From Escherichia phage PBM-1: a stretch of 64,000 nt of DNA. Location: the sequence record PV029540. One strand, 5' to 3'. Below the pieces are notes generated by a model, which was not told the DNA's origin, did no database searches, and saw only the letters and a list, made by a program, of their open reading frames with translations. A program made the position numbers and the translations under genes. Numbering within the stretch: the stretch's first letter is position 1; the number at the start of each line of letters is the position of its first letter. Positions 41,376 through 62,420 of the stretch are shown piece by piece.

Positions 41376-41383
41376 TTGATTAT

Positions 41384-41397
41384 GGGGCTTCGGCCCC
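41384..41397 (+). other. GC hairpin with UUCG tetraloop after gene 18
   Basis: GGGGC-TTCG-GCCCC directly after the gene 18 stop, covering the first codons of the HNH ORF. Confidence 0.6.
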
Positions 41398-41414
41398 TAT
41401 TCTCGAGGAAACAA

Positions 41415-42032
41415 GTGATTATTTCTAAGTTTGTTAAAGTGAAAATTGTACCATCAAATTTTAAACATTATCAATCAAAGGGTTATAAATTAACACCTCT
41501 TGGAGCGGTTAAACACGGATTTAGGTATTATGAAATTGATGTTAAAGTTGAAGACATTAAAGGTAATACCGCGTATGTAAAATGCCGTTGCGATAAATGT
41601 GGAATTGAATATAACCAACGCATTGGAAGAAACACTGATATTTGTCGTGATTGCCGTCATAAAGATAAAATGCGCAATAATTCATATGGTTCCGCGAATA
41701 AAGGAAAAACAGTAGAATGTATGCATGGCGTAAATCATCCAAGATGGAACCCAAATAAATCTGAAATGCGTGAATATATTTCATTGGTATATAAAGAAAC
41801 TCGTAAGCATAAGAAAATTTGGTCAAAATGGCCAAATGCTGATAAAATAGGAGTGTGCGGTACAAAAGGTGCTTACCAACTTGATCATAAGGTATCTATC
41901 AAATACGGTTTTGATAATTTAATTCCTGCTGAAATAATTGGCGGTATTAATAATTTAGAAATAATCACTTGGGAATCTAACCGAGAAAAATCAAAAAGAA
42001 ATAGTGTAGATCTTTGGGATTTACTAGAATGA
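41415..42032 (+). CDS. HNH homing endonuclease inserted between genes 18 and 19
   Basis: ORF 41376-42032 (first codon TTG, inside a GC hairpin); GTG at 41415 has GAGGA SD; CxxC...CxxC zinc-finger-like motifs and HNH-like YQLDHKVSIKYGFDN...N. Confidence 0.7.
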   Translation: MIISKFVKVKIVPSNFKHYQSKGYKLTPLGAVKHGFRYYEIDVKVEDIKGNTAYVKCRCDKCGIEYNQRIGRNTDICRDCRHKDKMRNNSYGSANKGKTVECMHGVNHPRWNPNKSEMREYISLVYKETRKHKKIWSKWPNADKIGVCGTKGAYQLDHKVSIKYGFDNLIPAEIIGGINNLEIITWESNREKSKRNSVDLWDLLE

Positions 42033-44289: not shown

Positions 44290-44546
44290 TGGAAGGTTTA
44301 ATTGAAGCTATTAAATCAAACGACCTCGTAGCCGCTCGTAAATTCTTTGCTGAAGCCATGGCTGCAAGAACGATTGATTTAATTAAAGAAGAAAAAATCG
44401 CTATCGCTCGTAATTTCTTAATCGAAGGTGAAGAACCTGATGATGAGGATGACGAAGACGAGGATGATGACGAAGATAGCGATGATAAAGACGACAAAAA
44501 AGACAAAGACTCTGACGAAGATGACGAAGACGAGGATGATGAATAA
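44289..44546 (+). CDS. 67: gp67 prohead core protein
   Basis: 85 aa; highly acidic D/E-rich C-terminal half; position. Confidence 0.8.
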
Positions 44547-44971
44547 TGCTTCTGATCCCTGAAACTCATGAATTAGTTCTCGAGAATGTCGAAGCACTTA
44601 TTCCTGAAGCACAGGGTCGCTTTGACGAATTGTCTTCTGCTTTAAATAAAGACGATATAAATACAATTGTCGAGAATATGCTTGATGATGAAACTGATTT
44701 AGCGATTGCATTAGCTTCTATTAATGAAGATATGCCGCTAAATGAATTCATCGTTAAACATGTTTCTGCTCGTGGTGAAATTACACGTACTAAAGACCGC
44801 AAGACGCGTGAACGTAATGCATTTCAAACCACCGGGCTGTCTAAAGCAAAACGTAGACAAATTGCTCGCAAAGCTACCAAAACGAAGATTGCCAACCCAG
44901 CAGGTCAATCTCGTGCTCAGCGTAAGCGTAAAAAAGCTCTTAAACGCCGTAAAGCATTAGGATTAAGCTAA
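44546..44971 (+). CDS. 68: gp68 prohead core protein
   Basis: 141 aa; position. Confidence 0.8.
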
Positions 44972-45603
44972 TGAATGAACCCCAATTACTAATTGAAACT
45001 TGGGGTCAACCTGGCGAAATTATTGATGGTGTGCCAATGCTTGAATCTCATGATGGAAAAGACCTCGGTTTAAAACCTGGTTTATACATCGAAGGAATAT
45101 TCATGCAAGCGGAAGTCGTCAATAGAAATAAACGTCTTTATCCAAAACGCATATTAGAAAAAGCGGTAAAAGACTATATCAATGAGCAAGTTTTAACAAA
45201 ACAAGCTCTCGGAGAATTAAATCATCCTCCACGCGCTAAAGTTGACCCGATGCAAGCCGCTATCATTATAGAAGATATGTGGTGGAAAGGAAATGACGTA
45301 TACGGACGAGCTCGTGTTATTGAAGGTGACCATGGTCCTGGAGATAAATTAGCAGCTAATATTCGTGCCGGATGGATTCCAGGAGTTTCTTCTCGTGGAT
45401 TAGGTTCATTGACTGACACAAATAAAGGTTATCGTATCGTAAACGAAGGATTCAAATTAACTGTAGGTGTTGATGCAGTATGGGGTCCAAGTGCTCCAGA
45501 TGCATGGGTAACCGTGCTTTTCCGCGGTTTTTCTTATAATAATAAGCGAAATCACGACGCCAGTATCCAGATTTCGCGTTATCAATACACAATACAATTT
45601 TAG
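44971..45603 (+). CDS. 21: gp21 prohead core protease, C-terminus replaced by read-through into antisense rnh
   Basis: Position and size fit T4 gp21 through about aa 181 (~45513); the remaining 29 aa are the reverse-complement reading of rnh codons. Confidence 0.7.
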   Translation: MNEPQLLIETWGQPGEIIDGVPMLESHDGKDLGLKPGLYIEGIFMQAEVVNRNKRLYPKRILEKAVKDYINEQVLTKQALGELNHPPRAKVDPMQAAIIIEDMWWKGNDVYGRARVIEGDHGPGDKLAANIRAGWIPGVSSRGLGSLTDTNKGYRIVNEGFKLTVGVDAVWGPSAPDAWVTVLFRGFSYNNKRNHDASIQISRYQYTIQF

Positions 45604-45808
45604 TGTATCCAAGAGTTTTTGCTTTTTTAACATTGAACTTAATTGAGTTCAATATCAAATGACGAACCATTGATAAATTAATTTTTTCTTTATCTGGGAA
45701 GTTTACCAGAGCAGTTGAAAGCGCAATCTGACTAAAGTCAATTAAGCAAATTCCTTCTTTGTAATCTTCATCCAGCATCATTTCTAAATCCATATGAACC
45801 TCGTTCAA
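45452..45808 (-). pseudogene. rnh: RNase H (rnh) 5' fragment: first ~94 codons only
   Basis: From Met6 (45793) matches T4 RNase H MDLEMMLDEDYKEGICLIDFSQ...KKNRGKAR, then diverges at ~45512 into antisense of gene 21; full rnh is 305 aa. Confidence 0.85.
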
Positions 45809-45819
45809 TTAGTGAGATT

Positions 45820-45865
45820 TCTATTATATACTATCTAAATCTTAAAGTAAACAAGTATAAATACT
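45820..45865 (-). promoter_or_regulatory. early promoter for rnh
   Basis: Minus strand GTTTAC-N16/17-TATATAAT upstream of the rnh start. Confidence 0.5.
45856..45863 (+). promoter_or_regulatory. late promoter (TATAAATA) for gene 34
   Basis: Exact TATAAATA ~35 nt upstream of the gene 34 ATG. Confidence 0.6.
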
Positions 45866-45897
45866 TATTATTGAAAACACAATAGGAGCCCGGGAGA

Positions 45898-48800
45898 ATG
45901 GCCGAGATTAAAAGAAAGTTCAGAGCAGAAGATGGTCTGGACGCAGGTGGCGATAAAATAATCAACGTAGCTTTAGCTGATCGTACCGTAGGAACTGACG
46001 GTGTTAACGTTGATTACTTAATTCAAGAAAACACAGTTCAACAATATGATCCAACTCGTGGATATTTAAAAGATTTTGTAATCATTTATAATAATCGTTT
46101 TTGGGCAGCAACGGATAATATTCCAAAACCTGCTGGAAGTTTTAATAGAATTCGTTGGAAAGCATTACGTACTGATGCTGTATATACAACCGTATCATCT
46201 GGACCGTATCAATTAAAATCCGGAGAAGCAATTTCAGTAGATACATCAGTTGGTAATGACATTGAGTTTACTTTACCACCTTCTCCGCTCGATGGAGAAA
46301 CAGTAATAATTCAAGATATCGGTGGAAAACCTGGTATAAATCAGGTTAAAATAAGTTCTTCAAATCAGAGCATTGTTAATTTTAGAGGTGAACAAGTACG
46401 TTCAGTTTTAATGACTCATCCAAAGTCACAGATGATATTCATTTTTAATAATCGTTTGTGGCAAATGTATGTTGCTGATTATAGCAGAGAAGCTGCAATT
46501 GTTACTCCATCGACTGCATATCAAGCACAATCTAATGATTTTATTGTGCGTAGATTTACTTCCGCAGCGCCGATTAATATTAAACTTCCGAGATTTGCTA
46601 ATCATGGCGATATTATTAATTTCGTTGATTTAGATAAATTAAATCCACTTTATCATACAATTGTCACGACATATGATGAAACAACTTCAGTACAAGAAGT
46701 TGGAACTCATTCCATTGAAGGCCGTACATCTATTGATGGTTTCTTGATGTATGATGATAATGAGAAATTATGGAGATTATTTGACGGGGATAGTAAAGCA
46801 CGTTTACGTGTTATAACAACTAATTCTAATATTCGTCCAAACGAAGAAGTTATGGTATTTAGTGCGAATAATGGAACAACTCAAACAATTGAACTTCAGC
46901 TTCCGACCGATATTTCCATTGGCGATACTGTTAAAATTTCCATGAATTACATGAGAAAAGGCCAAACAGTTAAAATCAAAGCTGCCGGTGAAGATAAAAT
47001 TGCTTCTTCAGTTCAATTGCTGCAATTCCCAAAACGTTCAGAATATCCACCTGAAGCTGAATGGGTGACTGTTCAAGAATTAGTTTTTAACGGTGAAACT
47101 AATTATGTTCCAGTTTTACAACTTGCTTATATCGAAGATTCTGACGGAAAATACTGGGTTGTACAGCAAAACGTTCCAACAGTTGAAAGAGTCGATTCTT
47201 TAAATAATTCTACTAGAGCAAGATTAGGCGTAATTGCTTTAGCTACACAAGCTCAAGCTAATGCTGATTTAGAAAATTCTCCACAAAAAGAATTGGCAAT
47301 TACTCCAGAAACGTTAGCTAATCGTACTGCTACAGAAACTCGCAGAGGTATCGCAAGAATAGCAACTACTGCTCAAGTTAACCAGGATACTACATTCTCT
47401 TTTGCTGATGATATTATCATCACTCCTAAAAAGCTGAATGAAAGAACTGCTACAGAAACTCGCAGAGGTGTTGCTGAAATTGCTACGCAACAAGAAACTA
47501 ATGCAGGAACCGATGATACTACAATCATCACTCCTAAAAAGCTTCAAGCTCGTCAAGGTTCTGAATCATTATCTGGTATTGTAACCTTTGTATCTACTGC
47601 AGGTGCTACTCCAGCTTCTAGCCGTGAATTAAATGGTACGAATGTTTATAATAAAAACACTAATAATTTAGTTGTTTCACCTAAAGCTTTAGATCAGTAT
47701 AAAGCTACTCCAACACAACAAGGTGCAGTAATTTTAGCAGTTGAAAGTGAAGTAATTGCTGGACAGAGTCAAGAAGGATGGGCAAATGCGGTTGTAACGC
47801 CAGAAACGTTACATAAAAAGACATCAACTGATGCAAGAATTGGTTTAATTGAAATTGCTACGCAAAGTGAAGTTAATACAGGAACTGATTATACTCGCGC
47901 AGTCACTCCTAAAACTTTAAATGACCGTAAAGCAACTGAAAGTTTAAGTGGTATAGCTGAAATTGCTACGCAAGTTGAATTCGACGCAGGCGTCGACGAT
48001 ACTCGTATCTCTACACCATTAAAAATTAAAACCAGATTTAATAGTACTGATCGTACTTCTGTTGTTGCTCTATCTGGATTAGTTGAATCAGGAACTCTCT
48101 GGGACCATTATACCCTTAATATTCTTGAAGCAAATGAGACACAGCGTGGTACACTTCGTGTGGCTACACAAGTTGAATCTGCTGCAGGAATATTAGATAA
48201 TGTTCTAATAACTCCTAAAAAGCTTTTAGGTACTAAATCTACTGAAGCGCAAGAAGGCGTTATTAAAGTTGCAACTCAATCTGAAACTGTAGCTGGAACG
48301 TCAGCAAATACTGCTGTATCTCCAAAAAATTTAAAATGGATTGTGCAGAGCGAACCTACTTGGGCAGCAACTACTTTGGTAAGAGGTTTTGTTAAAACTT
48401 CATCTGGTTCAATTACATTCGTTGGTAATGATACAGTTGGTTCAACGCAGCCATTAGACTTGTACGAGAAAAATAGCTATGCAGTATCACCATATGAATT
48501 AAACCGTGTATTAGCAAATTATTTGCCGTTAAAAGCAAAAGCTGCTGACGCAAATTTATTAGATGGTCTAGATTCATCTCAGTTCATTCGTAGGGATATT
48601 GCCCAGACAGTTAATGGTTCACTAACCTTAACCAAACAAACGAACCTGAGTGCCCCTCTTGTATCATCTAGTACTGCTACGTTTGGTGGATCAGTTTCAG
48701 CAAATAGTACACTAACTATTTCTAATACTGGAACGGCAACTCAATTAATTTTTGAGAAAGGACCTCAAACTGGAACAAACCCGACTCAAACAATGACTGT

Positions 48801-49767
48801 AAAAGTGTGGGGAAATCAATTTAGCGGGGAGTCAGACACAACACGTTCTACTGTATTTGAAGTTAGTGATGAAACTTCTAGTCATTTTTATTCTCAGCGT
48901 AATAAAGCTGGTAATATAACATTTAATATCAACGGTACAGTAACACCGATAAATGTGAATGCTTCAGGAACATTGAATGCGAATGGCGTTGCAACATTTG
49001 GTAATTCAGTCACTGCAACTGGTGAAATTATTTCTCGAAGCGCAAATGCTTTCCGTGCTATTAATGGAAATTACGGTTTCATTATTCGTAATGACGGGTC
49101 AGTAACGAATTTTATGCTTACTGCATCAGGCAATCAAACTGGTGGATTTAATGGATTGCGTCCATTGTCCATTAATAATCAATCTGGGCAGGTCACAATT
49201 GGTGAAAGCTTGATCATTGCTAAAGGTGCTACTATAAATTCAGGTGGTTTAACTGTTAACTCGAGAATTCGTTCTCAAGGTGTTAAAACATCTGATTTAT
49301 ATACCCGTGCGCCGACATCTGATACTGTAGGATTCTGGTCAATCGATATTAATGATTCAGCCACTTATAACCAGTTCCCGGGTTATTTTAAAATGGTTGA
49401 AAAAACTAATGAAGTTACTGGACTTCCATACTTAGAACGTGGCGAAGAAGTTAAATCTCCTGGTACATTGACTCAGTTTGGTAACACACTTGATTCACTT
49501 TACCAAGATTGGATTACTTATCCAACGACTCCAGAAGCACGTACCACTCGCTGGACACGTACATGGCAAAAAACTAAAAACTCTTGGTCAAGTTTTGTTC
49601 AGGTATTTGATGGAGGTAACCCTCCTCAACCTTCGGATATAGGAGCAATTCCATCTGATAATGGAATAATAGGTAATCTTACTATTCGTGATTTCTTACG
49701 AATTGGTAATGTTCGCATTATTCCTGACCCAGTGAATAAAACTGTTAAATTTGAATGGGTTGAATAA
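45898..49767 (+). CDS. 34: gp34 long tail fibre proximal subunit
   Basis: 1289 aa as in T4; late promoter upstream. Confidence 0.95.
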   Translation: MAEIKRKFRAEDGLDAGGDKIINVALADRTVGTDGVNVDYLIQENTVQQYDPTRGYLKDFVIIYNNRFWAATDNIPKPAGSFNRIRWKALRTDAVYTTVSSGPYQLKSGEAISVDTSVGNDIEFTLPPSPLDGETVIIQDIGGKPGINQVKISSSNQSIVNFRGEQVRSVLMTHPKSQMIFIFNNRLWQMYVADYSREAAIVTPSTAYQAQSNDFIVRRFTSAAPINIKLPRFANHGDIINFVDLDKLNPLYHTIVTTYDETTSVQEVGTHSIEGRTSIDGFLMYDDNEKLWRLFDGDSKARLRVITTNSNIRPNEEVMVFSANNGTTQTIELQLPTDISIGDTVKISMNYMRKGQTVKIKAAGEDKIASSVQLLQFPKRSEYPPEAEWVTVQELVFNGETNYVPVLQLAYIEDSDGKYWVVQQNVPTVERVDSLNNSTRARLGVIALATQAQANADLENSPQKELAITPETLANRTATETRRGIARIATTAQVNQDTTFSFADDIIITPKKLNERTATETRRGVAEIATQQETNAGTDDTTIITPKKLQARQGSESLSGIVTFVSTAGATPASSRELNGTNVYNKNTNNLVVSPKALDQYKATPTQQGAVILAVESEVIAGQSQEGWANAVVTPETLHKKTSTDARIGLIEIATQSEVNTGTDYTRAVTPKTLNDRKATESLSGIAEIATQVEFDAGVDDTRISTPLKIKTRFNSTDRTSVVALSGLVESGTLWDHYTLNILEANETQRGTLRVATQVESAAGILDNVLITPKKLLGTKSTEAQEGVIKVATQSETVAGTSANTAVSPKNLKWIVQSEPTWAATTLVRGFVKTSSGSITFVGNDTVGSTQPLDLYEKNSYAVSPYELNRVLANYLPLKAKAADANLLDGLDSSQFIRRDIAQTVNGSLTLTKQTNLSAPLVSSSTATFGGSVSANSTLTISNTGTATQLIFEKGPQTGTNPTQTMTVKVWGNQFSGESDTTRSTVFEVSDETSSHFYSQRNKAGNITFNINGTVTPINVNASGTLNANGVATFGNSVTATGEIISRSANAFRAINGNYGFIIRNDGSVTNFMLTASGNQTGGFNGLRPLSINNQSGQVTIGESLIIAKGATINSGGLTVNSRIRSQGVKTSDLYTRAPTSDTVGFWSIDINDSATYNQFPGYFKMVEKTNEVTGLPYLERGEEVKSPGTLTQFGNTLDSLYQDWITYPTTPEARTTRWTRTWQKTKNSWSSFVQVFDGGNPPQPSDIGAIPSDNGIIGNLTIRDFLRIGNVRIIPDPVNKTVKFEWVE

Positions 49768-49775
49768 GAGGTATT

Positions 49776-50891
49776 ATGGAAAAATTTATGGCAGAGTTTG
49801 GACAAGGATATGTCCAAACGCCATTTTTATCGGAAAGCAATTCAGTAAGATATAAAATAAGCATAGCGGGCTCTTGCCCGCTTTCTACTGCAGAGCCATA
49901 TGTTAAATTTCAGGATAATCCCATTGGAAATCAAACATTTAGTGCAGGTCTTCATTTAAGAGTTTTTGACCCTTCTACGGGAGCATTAGTTGATAGTAAG
50001 TCATATGCTTTTTCTGCTTCAAACAATACAACATCTGCCGCTTTTGTCAGTTTTATGAATTCTTTGTCAAACAATAGACTTGTTGCTATATTAACTAGCG
50101 GAAAGGTTAATTTTCCTCCTGAAGTGGTATCTTGGTTAAGGGGAGCAGGAACTTCAGTTTTTCCATCAGATTCAGTATTGTCAAGATTTGACGTATCATA
50201 TGCTGCTTTTTATACTTCTTCTAAAAGAGCTATTGCATTAGAGCATGTTAAACTAAGTAATAGAAAAAGCACAGATGATTATCAAACTATTTTAGATGTT
50301 GTATTTGATAGTTTAGAAGACGTCGGAGCTACGGGATTTCCTAAAAGAACATATGAAAGTGTCGAGCAATTTATGTCAGCGGTTGGTGGAACTAACAACG
50401 AAATTGCGCGATTACCAACTTCAGCTGCTATAAGTAAACTATCTGATTATAATTTAATTCCTGGTGATGTTCTTTATCTTAAAGCACAGTTATATGCTGA
50501 TGCTGATTTACTTGATCTTGGAACTACAAATATATCTATCCGTTTTTATAATGCATCAAATGGATATATTTCTTCAACACAGGCTGAGTTTACTGGGCAA
50601 GCTGGGTCATGGGAATTAAAGGAAGATTATGTAGTTGTTCCTGAAAATGCAGTCGGATTTACTATATATGCGCAGAGAACTGCTCAAGCTGGTCAAGGCG
50701 GACTGAGGAATTTAAGCTTTTCTGAAGTATCAAGAAATGGCGGCATTTCAAAACCTGCCGAATTTGGCGTCAACGGTATTCGCGTTAATTATGTCTGTGA
50801 ATCGGCTTCACCTCCAGATATAATGGTACTTCCTACACAAGCCTCTTCTAAAACTGGCAAAGTGTTTGGGCAAGAATTTAGAGAAGTTTAA
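49776..50891 (+). CDS. 35: gp35 long tail fibre hinge protein
   Basis: 371 aa; position. Confidence 0.9.
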   Translation: MEKFMAEFGQGYVQTPFLSESNSVRYKISIAGSCPLSTAEPYVKFQDNPIGNQTFSAGLHLRVFDPSTGALVDSKSYAFSASNNTTSAAFVSFMNSLSNNRLVAILTSGKVNFPPEVVSWLRGAGTSVFPSDSVLSRFDVSYAAFYTSSKRAIALEHVKLSNRKSTDDYQTILDVVFDSLEDVGATGFPKRTYESVEQFMSAVGGTNNEIARLPTSAAISKLSDYNLIPGDVLYLKAQLYADADLLDLGTTNISIRFYNASNGYISSTQAEFTGQAGSWELKEDYVVVPENAVGFTIYAQRTAQAGQGGLRNLSFSEVSRNGGISKPAEFGVNGIRVNYVCESASPPDIMVLPTQASSKTGKVFGQEFREV

Positions 50892-50897
50892 ACTGAG

Positions 50898-50920
50898 GGA
50901 GCCTTCGGGTTCCCTTTTTC
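50898..50920 (+). terminator. rho-independent terminator after gene 35
   Basis: GGGAGCC-TTCG-GGTTCCC hairpin followed by TTTTT. Confidence 0.6.
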
Positions 50921-50923
50921 TTT

Positions 50924-50931
50924 ATAAATAA
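50924..50931 (+). promoter_or_regulatory. late promoter (TATAAATA) for gene 36
   Basis: Exact TATAAATA after the gene 35 terminator. Confidence 0.6.
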
Positions 50932-50953
50932 TATTAAAATAAAGGGGCATATA

Positions 50954-51604
50954 ATGGCTGATTTAAAAGTAGGTTCAACTGTGGGTGGATCTGTCATTTG
51001 GCATCAAGGAAATTTTCCATTGAATTCAGCCGGTGACGATGTACTCTACAAATCATTTAAAATATATTCAGAATATAATAAACCACAGGCAGCTGATAAC
51101 GATTTCGTTTCTAAAGCTAATGGTGGTACTTACACCGGTCCAATTACTATTAATTACGGGGTAAATAGTTATCTTCAATTAAGTAATAATGAAACCCCCA
51201 TTCGAATTCGTTCTGGTGGCGGTACCGGCAATACTCTTGTAGTTGGCGGCTCTTCTGGCGGTATTAGTTTTAGACCTGCAGGTAGTGAAATCACTACTGG
51301 ACAAATTACTATTACGCCAGAAGGTTTGACAACATTTACCAGGGCTGTAACGGCTCCATCTGTAACTGTTACATCTACTCCTTCAGCAGCATCTGATGTT
51401 ACTCGTAAAGATTATGTCGATGGAGCAATAAATACTGTTACGGCAAATGCGAATTCTAGAGTTTTGCGTAAAGGTGACACCATGACAGGTAATTTAACAG
51501 CGCCAAACTTTTTCTCGCAGAATCCTGCATCTCAACCCTCGCATGTTCCACGATTTGACCAAATCGTGATTAAGGATTCTGTTCAAGATTTCGGCTATTA
51601 TTAA
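50954..51604 (+). CDS. 36: gp36 long tail fibre distal connector
   Basis: 216 aa; position; terminator and late promoter upstream. Confidence 0.9.
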
Positions 51605-51612
51605 GAGGACTT

Positions 51613-54597
51613 ATGGCTACTTTAAAACAAATACAATTTAAAAGAAGCAAAACTGCAGGTCAACGTCCTGCTGCTTCAGTATTAGCCGAAGGTGAATTGG
51701 CTATTAATTTAAAAGATAAAACAATTTTCACAAAAGATGACTCAGGCAGTGTTATAGAATTAGGTTTAAAATATGGAGGAACAATTGATGGTTCTTTAAC
51801 TGTTAATGGAAGTATAATTGGAAATTTAACAGGTAACGCTGCAACTGCAACGAAATTGCAAACACCTAGGAAAATTAATGGTATATCTTTTGATGGGTCA
51901 AAGGACATTACCTTAACTCCATCTGACATAAATGTCAATAGCACAACGTTTATAAAAAATAACGGCGAATTACCGGTTGATGCTAATTTAGATGAGTATG
52001 GGCCTGTTGAAGAATATCTTGGAGTTTGGTCGAAAGCAACTTCAACCAACGCTCAACCAGCAAATAAATTTCCAGAAAAAAATGCCGTAGGTGTGCTAGA
52101 AGTATTTGTGGCCGGTCAATTTGCTGGTACTCAGAGATATACAACCAGATACGGAAATGTTTATATTCGTTCCTTGACTGCTACATGGAACGGAGTAAAT
52201 GGTCCGTGGAGTGTGTGGCGAAATATTCAATCCGGTACTCGTCCACTGTCAACAACAATTGATCTTAATGATCTAGGAGGTGCTGAACACTTTGGCTTGT
52301 GGAGGAATAGTTCAAATTCCATTGCTACCTTTGACAGAAATTTCCCAGAAGAGGGGTCGTCCGCTCAAGGTCTTTTGGAAGTATATGAAGGTGGAAACTA
52401 TTCTCGCACACAGAGATATACAACCAGATTTGGTGTTGTTTATACTCGCTGTCTTACTGCTGCGTGGAATGCTTCTGCGCCTAAATGGGGACCGTGGCAA
52501 CAAGTCGGTAATGTCACACCGGCGACTTTCTATGACGGAGACCTGAATGATTTTAAAACTCCTGGGTTATATAATATTTTAGGTACTGATGCCGTTATTA
52601 ACTGTCCTACAGGTGAAGGTTTACCAGCCGTTATTGTTGGTTTGCTGGAAGTTAAACAGCGTGCTTCTGGTGGTGCTATTTTCCAAAAATTTACTACTGC
52701 CGGAACAGGTACAACTACTCGCGGACGTATTTTTGAGCGTGCATACACTAATGGTGTTTGGGGTACATGGAACGAAGTATATACATCTTATTCTCTGCCA
52801 ATTACTTTGGGTATGGGTGGTATTAAAGCTCAATTAGCGGAGTTAGATTGGCAAGCCTTTGATTTTGTCCCTGGTAGTATGTTTAGCGTTCCTTTGAATA
52901 AAATAAAGAACATGCCAGCAAATATGGATTGGGGGACGATTGATGGAAACTTGGTTATGTTTTCTGTCGGTCCTAGCGAACATACTAGCACAGGGCGTAC
53001 TGTTCAGGTTTGGCGTGGTACTGTATCCCAGACAAACTACCGTTATTTTGTCGTTCGTGTATTCGGTAATTCAGGAAATAGAACTTGCACAGTTCGTCGT
53101 GTTGTTCTTGAAGATGGTCGCCACAAATGGACAGCGCAGCAAGATTTTAATGGCGCAGTTAACTTCGGTGCTCCTACCAATTTTAACTCTACTGTTAACC
53201 TTAATAACACTACCACTTTTAAAACAGAAGTTAAATTCCGCTCATTGAATGCATTTAAAATGTACGGCGGTAAGTTTGGCGCAATTTTCCGTAATGATGG
53301 AGAGAGTCTTTATATTCTTTCCACCGACGAAGATGATCAAGATGGAAACTTTAATACAAATAGACCTTTCCGTTATGAATTGAGAACTGGTGATGTTACT
53401 TTAGGTGGTACTAGTGGTGCTAACGTTTTAAAATTAAAACGTGATTCTCTCACCGCATTTTTTGGTGGTGATATTAATATAAAAGGCTTGATGACTTTTG
53501 ACGCTGGACGTTTAGGATCACGAGATTATTTTAAATTTAACCATTGGGGTGATAGTAATAATGCGCGTGATAACATTATTCAGTTAGAAGACAGCAAAGG
53601 AGTTCATTTTTCTACTGAACGTACTTTAGCGACTGGTGCAATTAAAACTAAATTCTTTGGTGAAGTTGAATCCGATGGTAGATTGATTATTAAACGTCCG
53701 GGTGATTCTATTGTATTATCAGCACCTGCTAGTAATTCTTTGCATATTCGTGGTGACGTAGACGGGACTAATAACTGGTATATTGGTAAGGGTGGTGATG
53801 ATAATGGATTAGCGTTCTATAGTTATGCTACTAATGCTGGTGTATACATTACAAACGCAGGAGATATCACGCTAAGTCCAAAAGGCGTCGAAATGGCTCA
53901 TGTTAATAACGTTCGATTATATGTTCATGGTGAACGTTGGACCGCTAGTCAACCAGGTGATTGGGGCAACCAATGGCGAGTAGAAGCGCCAATATTCGTC
54001 GATCATGGTTATGTTGGACCAGATAGTTATTATCCAATTATTAAAGGAAGAAGTGTAGTCACCAATCAAGGGTTTGTAACTGCCGTCGATCTTGGTATTC
54101 GTCGTATCCCTAATAATTGGGGACAAGCAATTATTCGTGTTGGATCTGCGGAGGCTTCTCCTGATGCTGGTCATCCTAACGCGATATTCGAGTTCCACTA
54201 TGATGGGTTCTTTTATGCACCAGGAAATGGAAGTTTTAATGATGTGTATATTCGTTCCGATGGTCGTCTTAAGATTAATAAAAAAGAGCTAGAAAACGGA
54301 GCGGTTGAAAAAGTTTGCCGACTGAAAGTTTATACTTACGATAAAGTTAAGTCTATTAAAGACCGTAGTGTTATTAAACATGAAGTTGGTATTATTGCGC
54401 AGGATCTTGAAAAGGAATTGCCAGAAGCTGTATCTAAAGTTGAAGTTGATGGATCTGATGTTCTGACAATTTCTAACTCTGCTGTGAATGCTCTTTTAAT
54501 TAAGGCCATTCAGGAAATGAGCGAAGAAATTAAAGAATTGAAAACACCTTTCTTCACTAAAATTGCTCGTAAAATTAGAAATTATTTTAAATTCTAA
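51613..54597 (+). CDS. 37: gp37 long tail fibre distal subunit with C-terminal intramolecular-chaperone-like domain
   Basis: 994 aa; N-terminal 50 aa conserved with T4 gp37; C-terminal ~110 aa carry an auto-processing chaperone-like signature ([16 protein letters not shown]). Confidence 0.85.
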
Positions 54598-54629
54598 CAA
54601 CACGGGGCTTTGCCCCTTTGGAGAAAATT

Positions 54630-55430
54630 ATGGCAGTAGTTGGTGTTCCTGGTTGGATTGGAAGTTCATCCGTAAATGAAACAGGACAACGATGGATGAG
54701 TCAAGCGGCTGGTCAATTAAGATTGGGTGTTCCTTGCTGGATGAGTCAATTTGCAGGTCGCTCAAGAGAAATTATTCACACACTTGGAGCAGACCATAAC
54801 TTCAATGGTCAATGGTTCCGAGATAGATGTTTTGAGGCAGGTAGTGCACCTATAGTGTTTAATATCACCGGAAATTTGGTATCATATTCTAGAGATGTTC
54901 CTTTATTCTTCATGTATGGAGATACACCAAATGAATATGTTCAGTTGAATATTAGCGGTGGAGCTCATATGTGGGGCAGAGGTGGACAAGGTGGATGGAC
55001 TCATTCTGGTGGGGATGGTAATGGTCAACAGGGTGGGCATTGTATTCAAAATGACATTGGTGGTCGATTAAGAATTAATAATGGTGGAGTAATTTGTGGC
55101 GGTGGCGGCGGTGGCGGCGGTATCGCTTATCGTCCTCACTCTGGTGCAAACTGGCAAGATATTGGTGGCGGTGGAGGAAGACCATTTGGCCCAGGAGGTG
55201 GCGGTGGTTATTCAGGAGGCGCTGCTTCTTACGATGGCCCAGGAGGTGGTTATAATTATGGTAATGCTCACTCCGGTCAGGGTGGTGATGCTGGTGCAAA
55301 TGGACAAAATGCCTGGTATGATGGCGGTAAAGTACTAAAAGTCGGCGCTGGCGGCGCTGCTGGTTATGCCGTCATAGGATCAGCACCAACATGGCAAAAT
55401 GTTGGAATAATATATGGTCCAAGAGTATAA
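54630..55430 (+). CDS. 38: gp38 receptor-binding adhesin (T2-type, glycine-rich motifs)
   Basis: ORF 54618-55430 starts at TTG; ATG at Met5 with GGAGAA SD; conserved N-terminal [13 protein letters not shown]...; C-terminal poly-Gly islands separated by short variable segments. Confidence 0.85.
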
Positions 55431-55461
55431 TTTTGAATAAATATCCTTAAAAGGAGGGTCT

Positions 55462-56118
55462 ATGGCAGCACCTAGAATATCATTTTCGCCCTCTGATATT
55501 CTGTTTGGTGTTCTAGATCGCTTGTTCAAAGATAACGCTACCGGGAAAGTTCTTGCTTCCCGGGTAGCTGTCGTAATTCTTTTGTTTATAATGGCGATTG
55601 TTTGGTATAGGGGAGATAGTTTCTTTGAGTACTATAAGCAATCAAAGTATGAAACATACAGCGAAATTATTGAAAAGGAAAGAAATGCACGCTTTGAATC
55701 TGTCGCCCTGGAACAACTCCAGATAGTTCATATATCATCTGAGGCAGACTTTAGTGCGGTGTATTCTTTCCGCCCTAAAAACTTAAACTATTTTGTTGAT
55801 ATTATAGCATATGAAGGAAAATTACCTTCAACAATAAGTGAAAAATCACTTGGAGGATATCCTGTTGATAAAACTATGGATGAATATGCAGTTCATTTAA
55901 ATGGACGTCATTATTATTCCAACTCAAAATTTGCTTTTTTACCAACTAAAAAGCCTACTCCCGAAATAAATTACATGTACAGTTGTCCATATTTTAATTT
56001 GGATAATATCTATGCTGGAACAATAACCATGTACTGGTATAGAAATGATCATATAAGTAATGACCGCCTTGAATCAATATGTGCTCAGGCGGCCAGAATA
56101 TTAGGAAGGGCTAAATAA
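55462..56118 (+). CDS. t: holin
   Basis: 218 aa, near-identical to T4 holin T. Confidence 0.95.
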   Translation: MAAPRISFSPSDILFGVLDRLFKDNATGKVLASRVAVVILLFIMAIVWYRGDSFFEYYKQSKYETYSEIIEKERNARFESVALEQLQIVHISSEADFSAVYSFRPKNLNYFVDIIAYEGKLPSTISEKSLGGYPVDKTMDEYAVHLNGRHYYSNSKFAFLPTKKPTPEINYMYSCPYFNLDNIYAGTITMYWYRNDHISNDRLESICAQAARILGRAK

Positions 56119-56391
56119 TTATTTGTTCGTATACATCTCTAGATATCGATATACACCCTCAAAACCCTCGTTGAATTCGTCGATGAGGGTTTTCTTATCT
56201 TCTTGAGTTAATTCAGAAACAATTTTACGGAATGAATTCTGATTTAACTTTCTACCTTCATGCGTTACTCCAATCTCATTCAGAAATGCAATAAAATTAG
56301 CGCGATTCTCAACAATATCTTCTCTGGAAAATTTAATCAAAATAGACGCAACAGTAATAATTTCACGAACTGTATCAATATTTTTATTCAT
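56119..56391 (-). CDS. asiA: anti-sigma70 factor AsiA
   Basis: 90 aa matching T4 AsiA (MNKNIDTVREIITVASILIKFSRED...). Confidence 0.9.
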   Translation of the reverse strand: MNKNIDTVREIITVASILIKFSREDIVENRANFIAFLNEIGVTHEGRKLNQNSFRKIVSELTQEDKKTLIDEFNEGFEGVYRYLEMYTNK

Positions 56392-56403
56392 TAACTATAC
56401 CAC

Positions 56404-56556
56404 TCAATTAGTTGACTTTGTTATAATATCATCAGACGCTTGATTTGTAAACTGGTCTGTGGTATTTTCTTCAAAAATTTTTTCTACGAATTCCTTGAAC
56501 GACTTACGTTCCTGAGCTACATTATGCTCGATTACTTTTTCAAGATTATGACTCAT
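56404..56556 (-). CDS. small hypothetical protein (~50 aa)
   Basis: Hand-found ORF below the 60-aa track cutoff; ATG overlaps arn stop (ATGA); coordinates approximate. Confidence 0.3.
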   Translation of the reverse strand: MSHNLEKVIEHNVAQERKSFKEFVEKIFEENTTDQFTNQASDDIITKSTN

Positions 56557-56831
56557 TCGAAATAATCTTCAATTTCATAATCAAGGACATAAATCATTAT
56601 AGTTTTTAATACATCATCAATACTTTTTCCTGGAGCTGGAATTACGTAAAAATATCCTGCTTTTGAGAGGTCTTTATAAGTTCCAACCAAGAAATCATTA
56701 TTCTCAAGATGCAGTTCTTCAACTAATTCATTAACAATTGAGTGGTATAAATTTGGTAGAAACTTATATAGCTTTTCTAGAATATCAATTTTGATTGTGT
56801 ATTGAACCACAGATTGAGAATCAATAATCAT
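56553..56831 (-). CDS. arn: Arn-like anti-restriction protein
   Basis: 92 aa acidic protein at the arn position between asiA and motA. Confidence 0.65.
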   Translation of the reverse strand: MIIDSQSVVQYTIKIDILEKLYKFLPNLYHSIVNELVEELHLENNDFLVGTYKDLSKAGYFYVIPAPGKSIDDVLKTIMIYVLDYEIEDYFE

Positions 56832-56908
56832 AGACCTTCCCCTTATGTTTCTGTTTGCGATTAGATTCTTTAAACGCTTTCTTCTTATCCTTATGGACAG
56901 AAGCTTTA

Positions 56909-57133
56909 TTAAAATTGTGTTTTGCGACTAAATTGTTCATAGTGCTGAATTACCTCTCTCAAACACTTGCATGTGAATGAAAACTTTTTAGCTACACCAC
57001 ATTCAAATATATGTTCTCTTAAATCACGTGTGTCAGTATATCCCATCTCAACAATAAAATGTCTTATTAGATTTTTATCTTTATCATTGAGAGAATTAAA
57101 ATAATCGGATTTTGAATTAATTTCCCTGGCCAA
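56909..57133 (-). CDS. hypothetical protein (74 aa)
   Basis: ORF between arn and motA. Confidence 0.5.
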   Translation of the reverse strand: MAREINSKSDYFNSLNDKDKNLIRHFIVEMGYTDTRDLREHIFECGVAKKFSFTCKCLREVIQHYEQFSRKTQF

Positions 57134-57413
57134 ATTGAATCACCTTCAGTTGACGTTTTAGTTCTTTTATCATTTCTTCGTTCATCGCAATATAAAGATC
57201 GCGTAAAGCAGGTTTTAACATTCCATTTACTGGAGAACTAAATGGACATACATAATCTTTTCCTACGAGCTTTTTGGTGAATTCCATATCACAGAACTGA
57301 AATGCCGGTTCATTGGCATAAATTCCCCAATTAGATGACATCATTTTATTGGCATATTCCAACGCCTGGATTTGATTCTTAATTCCATCAATTTGAAACT
57401 TTTTAATATTCAT
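57117..57413 (-). CDS. hypothetical protein (98 aa)
   Basis: ORF between arn and motA. Confidence 0.5.
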   Translation of the reverse strand: MNIKKFQIDGIKNQIQALEYANKMMSSNWGIYANEPAFQFCDMEFTKKLVGKDYVCPFSSPVNGMLKPALRDLYIAMNEEMIKELKRQLKVIQFGQGN

Positions 57414-57874
57414 TAGTAAAGGTCCTCAGAGTAAAGTTCTTTTTCACTACCACCGCGTTCAATACGTACTTGTCCGGCGTAAGTTGCAATAATCATTGCT
57501 TCTTCACGTGTCCAGTAATTGCTATACTGATCAATAAACCCTTGGTCATCATCACAAACTTGCTGAGTAACTAATTGAGGTTTAACTACATCTAAAACTT
57601 CTGCCATATCTTTAGAATAATGACGAGCACCTGGAATAACAAGAGTTCGTCCATCTTTTAATTTAAAACGGTTGGCGGCACAAACAATTCGTCGTTGATA
57701 CTTTTGGTTTTCATCCCAGTATGCGGTCTGCCAACAGATTTCAGGAACTTCTTTCAGAATATCTTCTTCTGTGCATTTATAACCATGTGCTTTAAATTTT
57801 TCAACAAGACTTTCTGGAGTTTCACGAGATAAAGGAACATTCAGCATTTTTAAACGATTAATAAATGGGTTCAT
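57413..57874 (-). CDS. hypothetical protein (153 aa)
   Basis: ORF; TAATG coupling with neighbours. Confidence 0.55.
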
Positions 57875-58200
57875 TTAAACCATCCTTTAATACGCTGCCA
57901 CAGAGTTTTCTGTTGAGCTTTGTTAACACCAATTGAGCGAATAACTGGTTGAGATTCCTGGAATTCTTTATAATCAGCAAGGTAAATTTCGTAAGCTGCA
58001 TCCGTAAATGAACTTATCGCCGCCATAAAATTATTGCGAATACCTACTGGTGCATCTTTACTTTCACGAATAATCATGTATTTACCAGTCTTAATCTTTA
58101 CGATAGTTCCAAGATAAGCTCCATGATACCAGATATCCCACCCCTCTTGAGTGGGTTCTGCACAACGACGAAGTTCATTAACAATTTCTAACTTGTTCAT
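57871..58200 (-). CDS. hypothetical protein (109 aa)
   Basis: ORF; ATGA coupling. Confidence 0.55.
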
Positions 58201-58210
58201 TATTTATTCC

Positions 58211-58846
58211 TCACAGTTCAGATGCTACGGTGATTACTGCTTCAATGTTTTCTGCCGAGCGTTTAATGTCAAGATACACATTGCCGTTTTTAGCGATTTT
58301 ACATGACATTCCAATATTAGTAAATTTCTGAATATGGTGTTCCATCATTTTGTATCCAAAAATTCGCATATTTCCATTGTTATTAATTTCAAAATTACGA
58401 ATTCCGTGAGTGCGTTTTTCTAAAATAGCAAGATAGTTACTGCGGTAAGTTTCAACCTTTTTAAGAACAAATCCATTTTCATCTAAAAGTTTTAGCATAA
58501 GGTCTTTATCTTCTTCCATATCGGAAGTAATCTCACGAGCTTTACGAGTTGCTCGTTTTTTCAGTAGTTCAGGAGCATTTTCCTGTGCATATAAAGTTGC
58601 TGCATTTGAAATAATATCCTGAGCTTCTCCTGTAATGATTAATCCATCACCAGATTTCTCTACCAGACCTTTTTTAATCAATACCCCAATATTACTATTA
58701 ACTACTGCATTACCTAAATCTGGATGCACCTCACGAACTTCTGCGGCTGTAATGAAATCTTTCTTAGCAATGGTAATTAAAATCGCAGCAGTTTTTTCAT
58801 TCAGAACATCGTTAGAAGCTTTGATGATGTAAGTTACTTTAGACAT
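58211..58846 (-). CDS. motA: MotA middle-transcription activator
   Basis: 211 aa matching T4 MotA (MSKVTYIIKASNDVLNEKTAAILITIAKKDF...). Confidence 0.9.
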   Translation of the reverse strand: MSKVTYIIKASNDVLNEKTAAILITIAKKDFITAAEVREVHPDLGNAVVNSNIGVLIKKGLVEKSGDGLIITGEAQDIISNAATLYAQENAPELLKKRATRKAREITSDMEEDKDLMLKLLDENGFVLKKVETYRSNYLAILEKRTHGIRNFEINNNGNMRIFGYKMMEHHIQKFTNIGMSCKIAKNGNVYLDIKRSAENIEAVITVASEL

Positions 58847-58869
58847 TTTAATCTCCGTTTCAGTTCATT

Positions 58870-58925
58870 TATTTGATAGGTCTATAGTATCATGTTTAAA
58901 GCAGAAGTAAACACTTTTTTGCACT
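58870..58925 (-). promoter_or_regulatory. T4-type early promoter upstream of motA
   Basis: Minus strand GTTTAC-N18-TACTAT. Confidence 0.5.
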
Positions 58926-58951
58926 CTTTTTCAAGAGCTCTAATAAAGTAC

Positions 58952-59179
58952 TTACTTAATGTTCAGATTACGAACTTCGATTTCGTCTTCATGGGCAAAA
59001 TCAAACTGTTTGAATTCTGTGTCACCTTTAAATTTAAAAATCATTGTGAAGAAAGTCAGAACACCAGGTTTTTCTTCACGAACTCCACAGATGTCATATT
59101 CAATACCATCTACAACCAGTTTGTTAGCAGTCAGAGCATTTTTAGCTTTAACGATTTCGTTTTCGATTTTAAATTTCAT
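58952..59179 (-). CDS. hypothetical protein (75 aa)
   Basis: ORF with conserved early promoter upstream. Confidence 0.5.
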   Translation of the reverse strand: MKFKIENEIVKAKNALTANKLVVDGIEYDICGVREEKPGVLTFFTMIFKFKGDTEFKQFDFAHEDEIEVRNLNIK

Positions 59180-59214
59180 TTTTGTATCTCCGGGTTGTTT
59201 GTTTCAGTTCATTT

Positions 59215-59280
59215 ATTTGATAGTTGTATAGTACCACAGTATGCTTTGGTTGTAAACCGTTTTGTGAAAAAATTTTTGAA
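59215..59280 (-). promoter_or_regulatory. T4-type early promoter
   Basis: Minus strand AAAAATTTTTTCACAAAAC-GGTTTACA-N17-TACTATA. Confidence 0.5.
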
Positions 59281-59286
59281 ATAAAA

Positions 59287-59310
59287 AAGGGAGAGCCGAG
59301 GCTCTCCCTA
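59287..59310 (-). terminator. rho-independent terminator downstream of gene 52 unit
   Basis: Minus strand GGGAGAGCC-TCGG-CTCTCCC hairpin followed by TTTTTT. Confidence 0.6.
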
Positions 59311-59313
59311 AAA

Positions 59314-59463
59314 TTACTGCATGACTGTGATAACTGTCATGATAACACGTTGAATTCCGAACGCAAGAAGACCTCCTGCTACGGCAGGAACAACACCTAA
59401 ACCCGCCAGTAAAATGCCACCAGATACTAATGCAGCGCTTGTAATACCTATGAATGGACTCAT
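59314..59463 (-). CDS. small hydrophobic membrane peptide (~49 aa)
   Basis: Hand-found ORF below track cutoff; ATG overlaps gene 52 stop (ATGA); Gly/Ala-rich helix; coordinates approximate. Confidence 0.35.
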   Translation of the reverse strand: MSPFIGITSAALVSGGILLAGLGVVPAVAGGLLAFGIQRVIMTVITVMQ

Positions 59464-60788
59464 TTGATTTCCTCTAAATCTTTGGTGTATTCTGTAACTA
59501 CATCAGTAGTTTTCCAATATTCGTTTTCTTCTTTTTTAGCTTTAGCTTCTTCAGCAAGTTTCTTTGCTTCGTCGGAAGTCATATGAAAAATATTCATTCC
59601 AACTAGTTTATCAACATAAGAAGAATACATATCAATTTTAGAAAGTTCTTCGGTCAGTTCTTTGCGAGTTTTACCTTGTACAACAATTTCACCTGAAATT
59701 ACTTTCTTAATGAAATGCGCCTTGGCAAAGGCTAAACGAAATGCTGATTCAGTTTCTTTGATTTTGTTATCAATTCGTTTTTGGACATAAGTTTTACGAA
59801 CTTCAACGAAGTCTTTGATTAAATCAACTACGTTATCGTAAACTTGTAGTTTTCCTTTCTCATTAATAACGGTAATATTCTGGGAACGACGCTCAATCAA
59901 CCCGAAGTCTTTCATAATTTTTGCATGGCGTTCTTCTTCGTTATCGCTCAAGGAATATTCTTTACGGAATTTAACTTTGAAGCCAAAACCATGCTCACCA
60001 CAAGCATCATCCCATGTAATGAAGCCTTTATCTTCAAGCGGGTCTAAGATTTTACTCACATAAGTTTCACGATCATACTTATACGGAATCTCAGTGATAT
60101 GCATTTGAGTTCGTGAAGTAAACTTGTACGTTCCACGAATTTCATATTGACCGTCAATTTCAACGACTTCACCGCGAAATTCTGGAAATTCTACCTTCGG
60201 TTTAGTTACTTTCTTTCCTTGAAGAGCTTGCAATACAGCTTTCTTGACAGAAGAAACACTATGAGGAAGAATATAAGTTGCATAACCAGTTGCAATACCG
60301 GAAACACCATTAAGAAGAACAGTAGGAATAATAGGCAAATAGAAAGCAGGCGGAATGTGTTCTTTATCTTGATGTACCGGAGCATATTCAGTATCTTTAT
60401 ATACGCTATAGAAATTTTTACTTACACGAGCAAAAATATAACGACTTGCCGCTGCTTTTTGAACGGTACGAGAACCAAAGTTTCCTTGACCATCTAACAG
60501 AGGAAAGTTATTATTCCAAGTATTAGCCATCAAAGCACCTGCGTCTTGTGCAGAGTTTTCACCATGATGATATCCAAGGTCTGCTACACCACCTGCAATA
60601 GAAGCGAGTTTGTGAAACTTATCTTTATTTCCTCGTGCCAAATCAAGAGCTCGAGCAATAACAAATCGTTGAACTGGCTTAAATCCATCAATCATATTTG
60701 GGATAGCACGATTTTCAACCGTGTACATAGCATAAGCCAATGCTTCGTTATCAATGATACTTTTTAAATCGCGATTATTCAGTTGCAT
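59460..60788 (-). CDS. 52: gp52 DNA topoisomerase II medium subunit
   Basis: 442 aa; gyrase A-like motifs; size as in T4. Confidence 0.95.
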   Translation of the reverse strand: MQLNNRDLKSIIDNEALAYAMYTVENRAIPNMIDGFKPVQRFVIARALDLARGNKDKFHKLASIAGGVADLGYHHGENSAQDAGALMANTWNNNFPLLDGQGNFGSRTVQKAAASRYIFARVSKNFYSVYKDTEYAPVHQDKEHIPPAFYLPIIPTVLLNGVSGIATGYATYILPHSVSSVKKAVLQALQGKKVTKPKVEFPEFRGEVVEIDGQYEIRGTYKFTSRTQMHITEIPYKYDRETYVSKILDPLEDKGFITWDDACGEHGFGFKVKFRKEYSLSDNEEERHAKIMKDFGLIERRSQNITVINEKGKLQVYDNVVDLIKDFVEVRKTYVQKRIDNKIKETESAFRLAFAKAHFIKKVISGEIVVQGKTRKELTEELSKIDMYSSYVDKLVGMNIFHMTSDEAKKLAEEAKAKKEENEYWKTTDVVTEYTKDLEEIK

Positions 60789-60792
60789 AAAT

Positions 60793-60933
60793 TTACCATA
60801 CTAGTGAATGTAGTGCCATAATAACATCAGAAATGAAAAGCACGACTTGAATTAATCCGAACATTACTCCATAATATAGTGCTACCAATAAAGTAGCAAG
60901 GGCTAATGAATAGCCCAAGATTTTCTTAATCAT
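60793..60933 (-). CDS. small hydrophobic peptide (~46 aa)
   Basis: Hand-found ORF below track cutoff, upstream of gene 52; coordinates approximate. Confidence 0.25.
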   Translation of the reverse strand: MIKKILGYSLALATLLVALYYGVMFGLIQVVLFISDVIMALHSLVW

Positions 60934-61083
60934 TAGTAGATAACAACACAAATGTTAAATATGCACACATACCCTGAGATAAAGCTTGTGAAAACACGCT
61001 GTTAGCATCGGTGCAGATAGTTAAAACACATGCTACTATCCAACAAATCATTGAAATAATTCCAATAATTTTCGTAATATTCA
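60925..61083 (-). CDS. small hydrophobic peptide (~52 aa)
   Basis: Hand-found ORF below track cutoff; coordinates approximate. Confidence 0.25.
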
Positions 61084-61180
61084 TAATATTCTCCTCGATT
61101 GTTTTTAAAACCTAAAACACCGAAATTTTTAAGATTGTTACGATAGAACTGCATCACATGTTCGTTATGGAAATTACTCA

Positions 61181-61636
61181 TTAGTATACCTGCAAAACAA
61201 ATTTAAAGTTATCAGCCAACATACGGTTCATTTCTTCAAGTGTTTGATACTCAGAATGATGATTACGAGTAAACGCTAAAGCTAACTGACCTTTTCCAAA
61301 TCCAGTCGTTAGAGGTTTCATCTTAGAAGCAGGCAAATAAAATACTGTGTATGGAACATTATTATTTGCAATAGTACGCGCAAGCTGAGACCGACGTTGA
61401 CGAATATGACTTAGAACTGCACTGAACCCTTGCTTAGAACGCTGATTACCTACATAAAATCGCGCAGATACACATGGACTATCAAATGGACCACCAAATT
61501 TGCTCACTAAAAAGTAAAATCCAGGTTTAGACAAAATGTCTTTATGTGGAGTTCCAAAAACCCATTCACCGCCCTTGATTGTACCAATAACAGTTGCGCC
61601 TGCATTATTCAGATCAGTAACAGTCATGTATTTCAT
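61181..61636 (-). CDS. ndd: Ndd nucleoid disruption protein
   Basis: ORF 61181-61684; 151 aa from Met17 ([19 protein letters not shown]...) matching T4 Ndd. Confidence 0.85.
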
Positions 61637-61696
61637 ATTAATTTCCTCTAAATTATTTTCTACTCCAAGGCCGCATGAATACACACGGCCGATAAA

Positions 61697-61912
61697 TTAA
61701 TCGTCGCAGTCGACGCTCAATTCCCAAAACTCTTCTACGGTATATGTTTCAGTATCATTTTCAATACAGAAACGTTTATTACTGTTGTTTTCTAAAGTAG
61801 CGTTAACTGTCATTTTCTCGCTAGTGCTCTTAAGAGGTGAAATACGAATTAACTGATCACCATTATCTAAACAAAAAATTTCACCAACTTTTACATCTTT
61901 AAAAATTTTCAT
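61697..61912 (-). CDS. hypothetical protein (71 aa)
   Basis: ORF with GAGGTG SD. Confidence 0.5.
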   Translation of the reverse strand: MKIFKDVKVGEIFCLDNGDQLIRISPLKSTSEKMTVNATLENNSNKRFCIENDTETYTVEEFWELSVDCDD

Positions 61913-61920
61913 AATTCACC

Positions 61921-62031
61921 TCAAGGAGTATAAAATCCGAATGCAGTTGTTGACCATCCCATCCAATACGGAAAATTTGCACCAATGTAAAACATGAGAA
62001 TATAAAACCAACCGCTCAGCAAATTCATCAT
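61921..62031 (-). CDS. small hydrophobic peptide (~36 aa)
   Basis: Hand-found ORF; ATGA overlap with upstream stop; coordinates approximate. Confidence 0.3.
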   Translation of the reverse strand: MMNLLSGWFYILMFYIGANFPYWMGWSTTAFGFYTP

Positions 62032-62246
62032 TTTACACCATTCCAAATTGTTTCAACTACAGATTTTAAGCCATTTTGGTGAATATCCATTCCGACAACT
62101 GCCATCAAATAAATTCCAACTACAACTGAACCTAAGGCAAAAATCAGCATGAAAATGAATAAAGCCGGAAAAATATTATCGAAAAACCATTCAATAAATG
62201 TAAAAGCACTGCGTTTACGCTTCATATTTTCCTCACATAAATCCAA
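62028..62246 (-). CDS. small membrane protein (72 aa)
   Basis: ORF with a long hydrophobic helix. Confidence 0.5.
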   Translation of the reverse strand: MDLCEENMKRKRSAFTFIEWFFDNIFPALFIFMLIFALGSVVVGIYLMAVVGMDIHQNGLKSVVETIWNGVK

Positions 62247-62346: not shown

Positions 62347-62359
62347 TTTCTGTTCCTCC

Positions 62360-62420
62360 GTAGTTGATAGGATAATAATACCACAGAGGAACAGTCTTGT
62401 AAACAACTTTTTAAAAATAT
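62360..62420 (-). promoter_or_regulatory. T4-type early promoter
   Basis: Minus strand GTTTACA-N17-TATTAT. Confidence 0.5.

Follow-up and report, generated by a model that had tools for sequence, protein, structure and literature searches.

In the 64,000-nucleotide stretch of the Escherichia phage PBM-1 record PV029540 analyzed here (hereafter, the window), gene 21 and rnh are fused tail-to-tail through a blunt join, at which 45,362 bp present in the closest relative, Escherichia phage EPIMAM01 (PQ493298.1, 166,845 bp), are absent. From the character of the two flanks and of the switch between them, we infer that this join is probably a non-biological omission with a technical cause, that is, assembly, scaffolding, concatenation, or editing. 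The result matters chiefly for quality control: it would be wrong to take the window for a phage without capsid genes or to annotate the two fusion open reading frames (ORFs) as new proteins, and gene-content, synteny, or "novel fusion protein" analyses of the record would be misled.

A blunt join between gene 21 and rnh

Homology to gene 21 stops and antisense homology to rnh starts at adjacent bases of the window (Table 1). When positions 45000-46000 were compared by megablast with 50,697 phage records, 556 records matched; the gene 21 match ends at query base 513 (window 45512) in every one of them, and none (0/556) covers at least 80% of the query in one place, i.e., with both halves no more than 1 kb apart. 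Because all 556 records match one flank or the other and none matches both within 1 kb, this is not a chance pattern. With positions 45500-46100 as the query, the matches to rnh and gene 34 start at query base 14 (window 45513), and a three-way alignment with both parental regions of Shigella phage Sfk20 places the switch point between GGGTAAC and CGTGCTTTTCC. Both flanks were found in nine records among the matches listed, including EPIMAM01, UGKSEcP1/2, Sfk20, RB3, P922, ZCEC14, Ec_YwIITB1, and vB_SsoM_113, and in all nine the flanks lie on one strand, 45.4-49.4 kb apart. An earlier reading of this DNA, made from the sequence only, had recognized the tail-to-tail fusion and predicted two BLAST matches tens of kilobases apart that abut at ~45512; the alignments bear this out, but not the further expectation that the two matches would lie on opposite strands. 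Gene 21 and rnh naturally face each other, and their tail-to-tail fusion therefore requires nothing more than a collinear gap.

The complete EPIMAM01 sequence was compared locally with the whole window by blastn. Window positions 1-45512 correspond to EPIMAM01 57058-101928 and positions 45513-64000 to EPIMAM01 147291-165905, with all high-scoring segment pairs (HSPs) in plus/plus orientation, in order, and 95.3-99.5% identical, and with the gap at the join as the single large break. EPIMAM01 is the closest relative on both sides of the join, and the nucleotide identity of the window to EPIMAM01 and UGKSEcP1/2 is 98.3-99.5%. Thus, outside the join, the window displays the high identity and collinear gene order of Tequatrovirus, whereas the order 21-22-23-24 and the genes 32/59/33/dsbA preceding rnh, all present in the references, are missing from it. 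The ordinary Tequatrovirus members EPIMAM01 and UGKSEcP1/2 share gene order and strand with the window over both 1-45512 and 45513-64000, and differ from it in having the 45.4-45.9-kb block that runs between the ends of gene 21 and rnh, as well as in small cassettes (homing-endonuclease ORFs, two tRNA genes, and gp38 repeats); in other relatives, the equivalent gap amounts to 45.4-49.4 kb. The alignment to EPIMAM01 is free of indels over 23.8 kb to the left (17524-41376) and 9.7 kb to the right (45513-55230) of the join, the few remaining indels being confined to divergent stretches. Identity to EPIMAM01 is patchy on both flanks, as is usual for mosaic T4-like phages, and there is no step at the join.

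Table 1. Features at the join and in the tRNA cluster of the window
Feature	Position	Strand	Basis or remark
GIY-YIG/NUMOD3 Seg-like homing endonuclease	12272-12922	-	tRNA cluster
HNH endonuclease (phrog_14736)	13099-13731	-	tRNA cluster
Gene 68, intact	44546..44971	+	ORF; identical protein in public contigs
Gene 21 (prohead core protease), codons 1-181 of 212	44971..45512	+	Peptidase_S77, PDB 5JBL, comparison with EPIMAM01 gp21
rnh-frame tail: 19 codons of antisense gene 21 (LPMHLEHLDPILHQHLQLI) and stop	45452..45512	-	ORFs, breakpoint comparison
Terminator-like hairpin and T-run	45510..45529	+	partly made by the join
Blunt join	45512..45513		left, EPIMAM01 101928; right, EPIMAM01 147291; 45,362 bp absent
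Gene 21-frame tail: 29 codons of antisense rnh (VLFRGFSYNNKRNHDASIQISRYQYTIQF) and stop	45513..45603	+	ORFs, breakpoint comparison
rnh (T4 RNase H, FEN-type 5'-3' exonuclease), codons 1-94 of 305	45513..45793	-	PDB 1TFR/2IHN
rnh early-promoter-like site TTTACT-17-TATAAT, intact	45823..45851	-	sequence motif
Late-promoter box TATAAATA, intact, 5' of the gene 34 ATG (45898)	45856..45863	+	read from the sequence
Gene 34 (long tail fibre proximal subunit), intact, 1289 aa	45898..49767	+	ORF, matches to phage records

The fused gene 21 ORF (44971-45603, plus strand) encodes 210 aa, of which residues 1-181 are gp21, in agreement with the boundary at about codon 181 (~45513) given by the sequence-only reading. 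This stub covers profile positions 1-189 of 198 in Pfam Peptidase_S77 (E = 3e-105), is nearly identical over these residues to T4 gp21 (PDB 5JBL), and retains the domain with His85 and Ser140. These two are the known catalytic residues of gp21, and the crystal chain of 5JBL, in keeping with that role, has Ala at exactly these two positions. What the stub lacks are the 31 C-terminal residues of native gp21 (182-212, PKEITESQTAEADTSADDAYMALAEAMKKAL), the segment with the I-T-E motif, in place of which it carries 29 residues of antisense rnh. The lost I-T-E conforms to the L/I-x-E cleavage rule and agrees with the C-terminal processing reported for gp21 (PMC9026906). The codon split by the gene 21 breakpoint is synonymous by coincidence (Thr181, ACT to ACC), and so is the one split by the rnh breakpoint (Arg94, CGA to CGG). 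Immediately upstream, gene 68 encodes a protein with identical copies in 10 public contigs, in all 10 of which the next gene encodes a 212-aa gp21 and genes 22, 23, and 24 come after it.

On the minus strand, the rnh ORF (45452-45808; ATG at 45793, stop codon ending at 45452) encodes 113 aa and overlaps the gene 21 ORF tail-to-tail. Its residues 1-94 are identical to those of T4 RNase H (PDB 1TFR/2IHN, 305 aa), so that the description of rnh as intact from 45793 to about codon 94 and antisense gene 21 from there on holds. The remaining 211 of the 305 residues, among them the entire C-terminal domain and the greater part of the nuclease domain, are lost. The full-length reference matches the 5_3_exonuc_N and RNaseH_C (H3TH) domains that characterize T4 RNase H and FEN-type nucleases, whereas the 113-aa stub has no Pfam match. 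Both neighboring promoters are intact, as had been claimed: the early-promoter-like site of rnh and, upstream of the intact gene 34, the box TATAAATA, which is a late-promoter box by the established T4 consensus.

Comparison of the breakpoints with the parental sequences revealed 0 shared bases in either direction at the join, where the two pieces do not overlap; nor do the parental sequences have any 12-mer in common up to 150 nt to the left and right of the breakpoints. Accordingly, the join shows neither the microhomology of a repeat-mediated deletion nor the shared k-mer of tens of bases at the switch that would mark a repeat misassembly in a de Bruijn graph; by our estimate, zero microhomology is expected ~56% of the time under random abutment. 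One 11-mer, TTCTTCTCGTG, is present in gene 21 at 45387-45397, 126 nt upstream of the left breakpoint, and its second copy spans the rnh breakpoint in the reference genomes (positions -7 to +4); a shared, breakpoint-spanning word of at least 10 nt was found for 1.2% of 40,000 random pairs of reference positions (empirical p ~0.012). This repeat was rejected as the cause because the join lies away from its copy in gene 21, and we record it as a coincidence that explains neither recombination nor misassembly. Two further features belong to the junction itself. The BstEII-like GGTAACC at the join is a product of the join and occurs in neither parent. The junction hairpin was rejected as a functional terminator, being within chance (1 found vs. 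1.3 expected in shuffles).

There is no independent second occurrence of the join. Junction 29-40-mers are absent from IMG/VR, JGI metagenomes, and GTDB genomes; megablast with window 45300-45750 did not detect the join in complete E. coli genomes; and searches by exact sequence in an index of 153 billion genes retrieved neither the two fusion ORFs nor the gp34 of the window. Flank 40-mers match five IMG/VR contigs (two from one metagenome) that are 96-98% identical to the window, and all five read through the breakpoints into the normal neighboring genes; none of them is therefore the source of the window.

Content of the absent block

According to the annotation of EPIMAM01, the gap comprises 69 whole coding sequences (CDS) together with the 3'-terminal 31 codons of gene 21 and 211 codons of rnh, that is, the whole interval from gene 22 to dsbA that the sequence-only reading had pronounced missing. 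Among the head genes, those for the scaffold gp22, major capsid gp23, vertex gp24, hoc, and capsid assembly protein gp31 are absent, as are those for the baseplate hub and tail tube junction gp25, gp27, gp28, gp48, and gp54, and the unnamed EPIMAM01 neighbors at the positions of genes 26, 51, and 29. The block further contains genes of replication, recombination, and late transcription (uvsW, uvsY, DNA ligase [gene 30], gp32, gp59, and gp33, a late-transcription co-activator), genes of nucleotide metabolism (cd, nrdA with its neighbor, td, and frd), and RNA ligases 1 and 2, alt, rIII, pseT, denA, and dsbA. Of the head genes, 21, 22, and 23 belong to the essential core (PMC9026906, PMC9958956). 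A genome with this join cannot replicate, transcribe its late genes, or build heads; the statement that a phage so arranged could not make capsids is thus correct, with genes 22, 23, and 24 among those lost. Given the loss of essential head and other genes, such a genome cannot be the consensus of a propagating phage.

Relocation of the block within the window was rejected: the missing interval was not found elsewhere in the window, where it is matched by repeats of 40-80 nt of regulatory type only. These dispersed repeats, located in early regions (9464-9522, 59219-59291, 62868-62932, and others), match EPIMAM01 144288-144363, an intergenic segment between the gp32 gene and the neighboring ORF. 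By analogy, they resemble the mobile promoter or regulatory cassettes that have reportedly been described for T4-type phages.

Origin of the join

The sequence-only reading had offered a deletion endpoint, an engineered construct, and an assembly or concatenation chimera as explanations of the join; these three are the proper candidates, and they cannot be told apart completely from the sequence alone. Under a technical omission, the phage behind the sequence would have the normal Tequatrovirus order 68-21-22-23-...-dsbA-rnh-34, ~45.4 kb from the middle of gene 21 to the middle of rnh would have been left out of the sequence, and the two remaining pieces would have been placed end to end, with no spacer, in the order and orientation of the reference. 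Candidate causes include the joining of contigs without Ns, reference-guided scaffolding, treatment of a contig as circular, use of a chimeric long read as the backbone, and deliberate editing of the record. The fusion ORFs (gp21 residues 1-181 plus 29 aa, and RNase H residues 1-94 plus 19 aa) would then be read-through by-products, and the join would have no biological role.

This explanation is favored because the join is a blunt, homology-free abutment, in reference order, of two undamaged pieces of the same lineage; because the only large break relative to EPIMAM01 is a gap on one strand that removes 69 whole CDS, essential genes included; because no microhomology is present at the join; and because the join is unique, all 10 contigs with an identical gp68 having the normal order. 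Both stubs are otherwise undamaged, with no sign of decay or compensation, which implies either that the event happened very recently or that selection never acted on it. The same relatives (EPIMAM01 and UGKSEcP1/2) are closest on both sides, with no identity step, which speaks for an omission within one genome; a chimera of two phages is not supported on the same grounds. Unspaced contig joins and chimeric contigs in draft phage assemblies likewise display an abrupt, homology-free switch between perfect flanks and a join confined to one record. Here, in addition, the join follows the order and orientation of the reference, pointing to reference-guided ordering or circular treatment, not to random concatenation.

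Some of the evidence weighs against a technical origin. Collinear order and orientation are equally expected of a real deletion, and flanks of such very high quality are not what a noisy long-read draft would yield; this option was rejected given the near absence of indels (zero in the 23.8 kb to the left and the 9.7 kb to the right). Moreover, where no k-mer is shared, a de Bruijn-graph assembler can make a join only from reads that span it. Hence, if the record was produced by de Bruijn assembly with no later scaffolding, molecules bearing the join existed, either in vivo or as library chimeras.

A genuine in vivo deletion, in which illegitimate, homology-free end joining (for example, mediated by a topoisomerase or a break) removed 45.4 kb, is an unlikely but substantial alternative to technical omission. 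It would yield a defective genome of ~121.5 kb (73% of full length) that requires coinfection with a wild-type helper for replication, late transcription, and headful packaging, would be packaged with ~50 kb of terminal redundancy, and would have been sequenced from a subpopulation or a single molecule. The gap is compatible with such an event, being collinear, on one strand, and bounded by two points of one lineage, with clean flanks of high quality and both neighboring promoters intact; furthermore, all the lost functions act in trans, and a helper could provide them. Classical T4 deletion mutants (rII, 39-56, and other non-essential regions) also arose by collinear loss that fused the flanking frames. 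Known viable T4 deletions, however, extend to ~10-18 kb in non-essential regions and lie mostly between short direct repeats, as described in the T4 rII deletion literature, homology-free deletions being a known minority class, whereas here 45 kb of largely essential genes are lost at a blunt join without shared bases. There is no microhomology at the join even though most T4 deletions use direct repeats, and the available 11-bp direct repeat was not used. Headful packaging would give a shorter genome no advantage, so that quick loss would be expected, not dominance of an assembly. In addition, many essential genes would have been removed (PMC9026906), and the join was not encountered in the phage records, IMG/VR, JGI, GTDB, the E. 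coli genomes, or the gene index. If true, a real deletion would by itself amount to an ordinary dead mutant. It is quite improbable that the join is both real and recurrent, representing a natural T4-like deletion genome of ~121 kb that maintains itself at the expense of its wild-type parent as a helper-dependent, defective-interfering or satellite-like parasite, devoid of head-shell, baseplate-hub, replication-accessory, and late-transcription genes and packaged by the headful mechanism into helper capsids. A join both real and abundant would reveal an unusual helper-dependent deletion genome in a T4-like population, which is unlikely on the present evidence.

The precision of the blunt, scarless join, made without homology and found nowhere in public data, would also suit an engineered or cloned partial genome, such as an in vitro- or yeast-assembled backbone without the 45-kb block, or a test sequence edited in silico. 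We consider this very improbable: the breakpoints fall inside two genes and not at gene boundaries, the join carries no vector, selection marker, recombination-site, or linker sequence, and the BstEII-like site is created by the join instead of being inherited from either parent. Published T4 engineering is not known to have gone beyond the deletion of non-essential blocks. Scarcely credible, finally, is a viable phage in which the 45-kb block has moved into the ~58 kb beyond the window and the truncation of gp21 and loss of rnh are tolerated. The window does span only EPIMAM01 57058-101928 and 147291-165905, the catalytic body of gp21 with His85 and Ser140 is kept, and T4 can do without rnh provided that host Pol I is present. 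Nevertheless, all 556 related records keep the block in place, no part of it lies within the window, both genes are cut in mid-domain, and the C-terminal propeptide of gp21 is conserved and processed (PMC9026906).

Smaller differences from EPIMAM01

Outside the join, the window differs from EPIMAM01 at several sites. The tRNA cluster at 11578-13731 contains 9 tRNA genes (Arg, His, Asn, Tyr, Met, Thr, Ser, Gly, and Leu), compared with 11 in EPIMAM01, and two endonuclease ORFs (Table 1) occupy the positions of the EPIMAM01 tRNA-Pro and tRNA-Gln genes. The window has 656 bp more than EPIMAM01 between genes 18 and 19 (41376-42032, plus strand), and this insertion encodes a Cys-rich ORF of 218 aa (phrog_5104, function unknown) with no Pfam match; ORFs of 185-216 aa are found at the matching gene 18/19 site in some relatives, and the insertion is probably a free-standing mobile cassette of the endonuclease type. 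Conversely, ~670 bp of EPIMAM01 in the gene 3/2 region (hypothetical CDS, 73935-74594), an optional cassette, are absent at window 17514-17524.

The gp38 adhesin (54618-55430, plus strand) consists of 270 aa, compared with 250 aa in EPIMAM01, and has extra Gly-rich repeats at ~55100-55380. This additional repeat material accounts for a 127-nt overlap of BLAST HSPs at gp38, which is not an assembly artifact; a 127-bp end duplication of the SPAdes type at 55103-55230 was rejected, given that the region shows Gly-rich repeat variation and no exact duplication. Finally, an in-frame insertion of 18 nt relative to EPIMAM01 (GATGATGAGGATGACGAA, 44439-44456) in the acidic Asp/Glu tail of gp67 looks like variation in the repeat length of the acidic tract.
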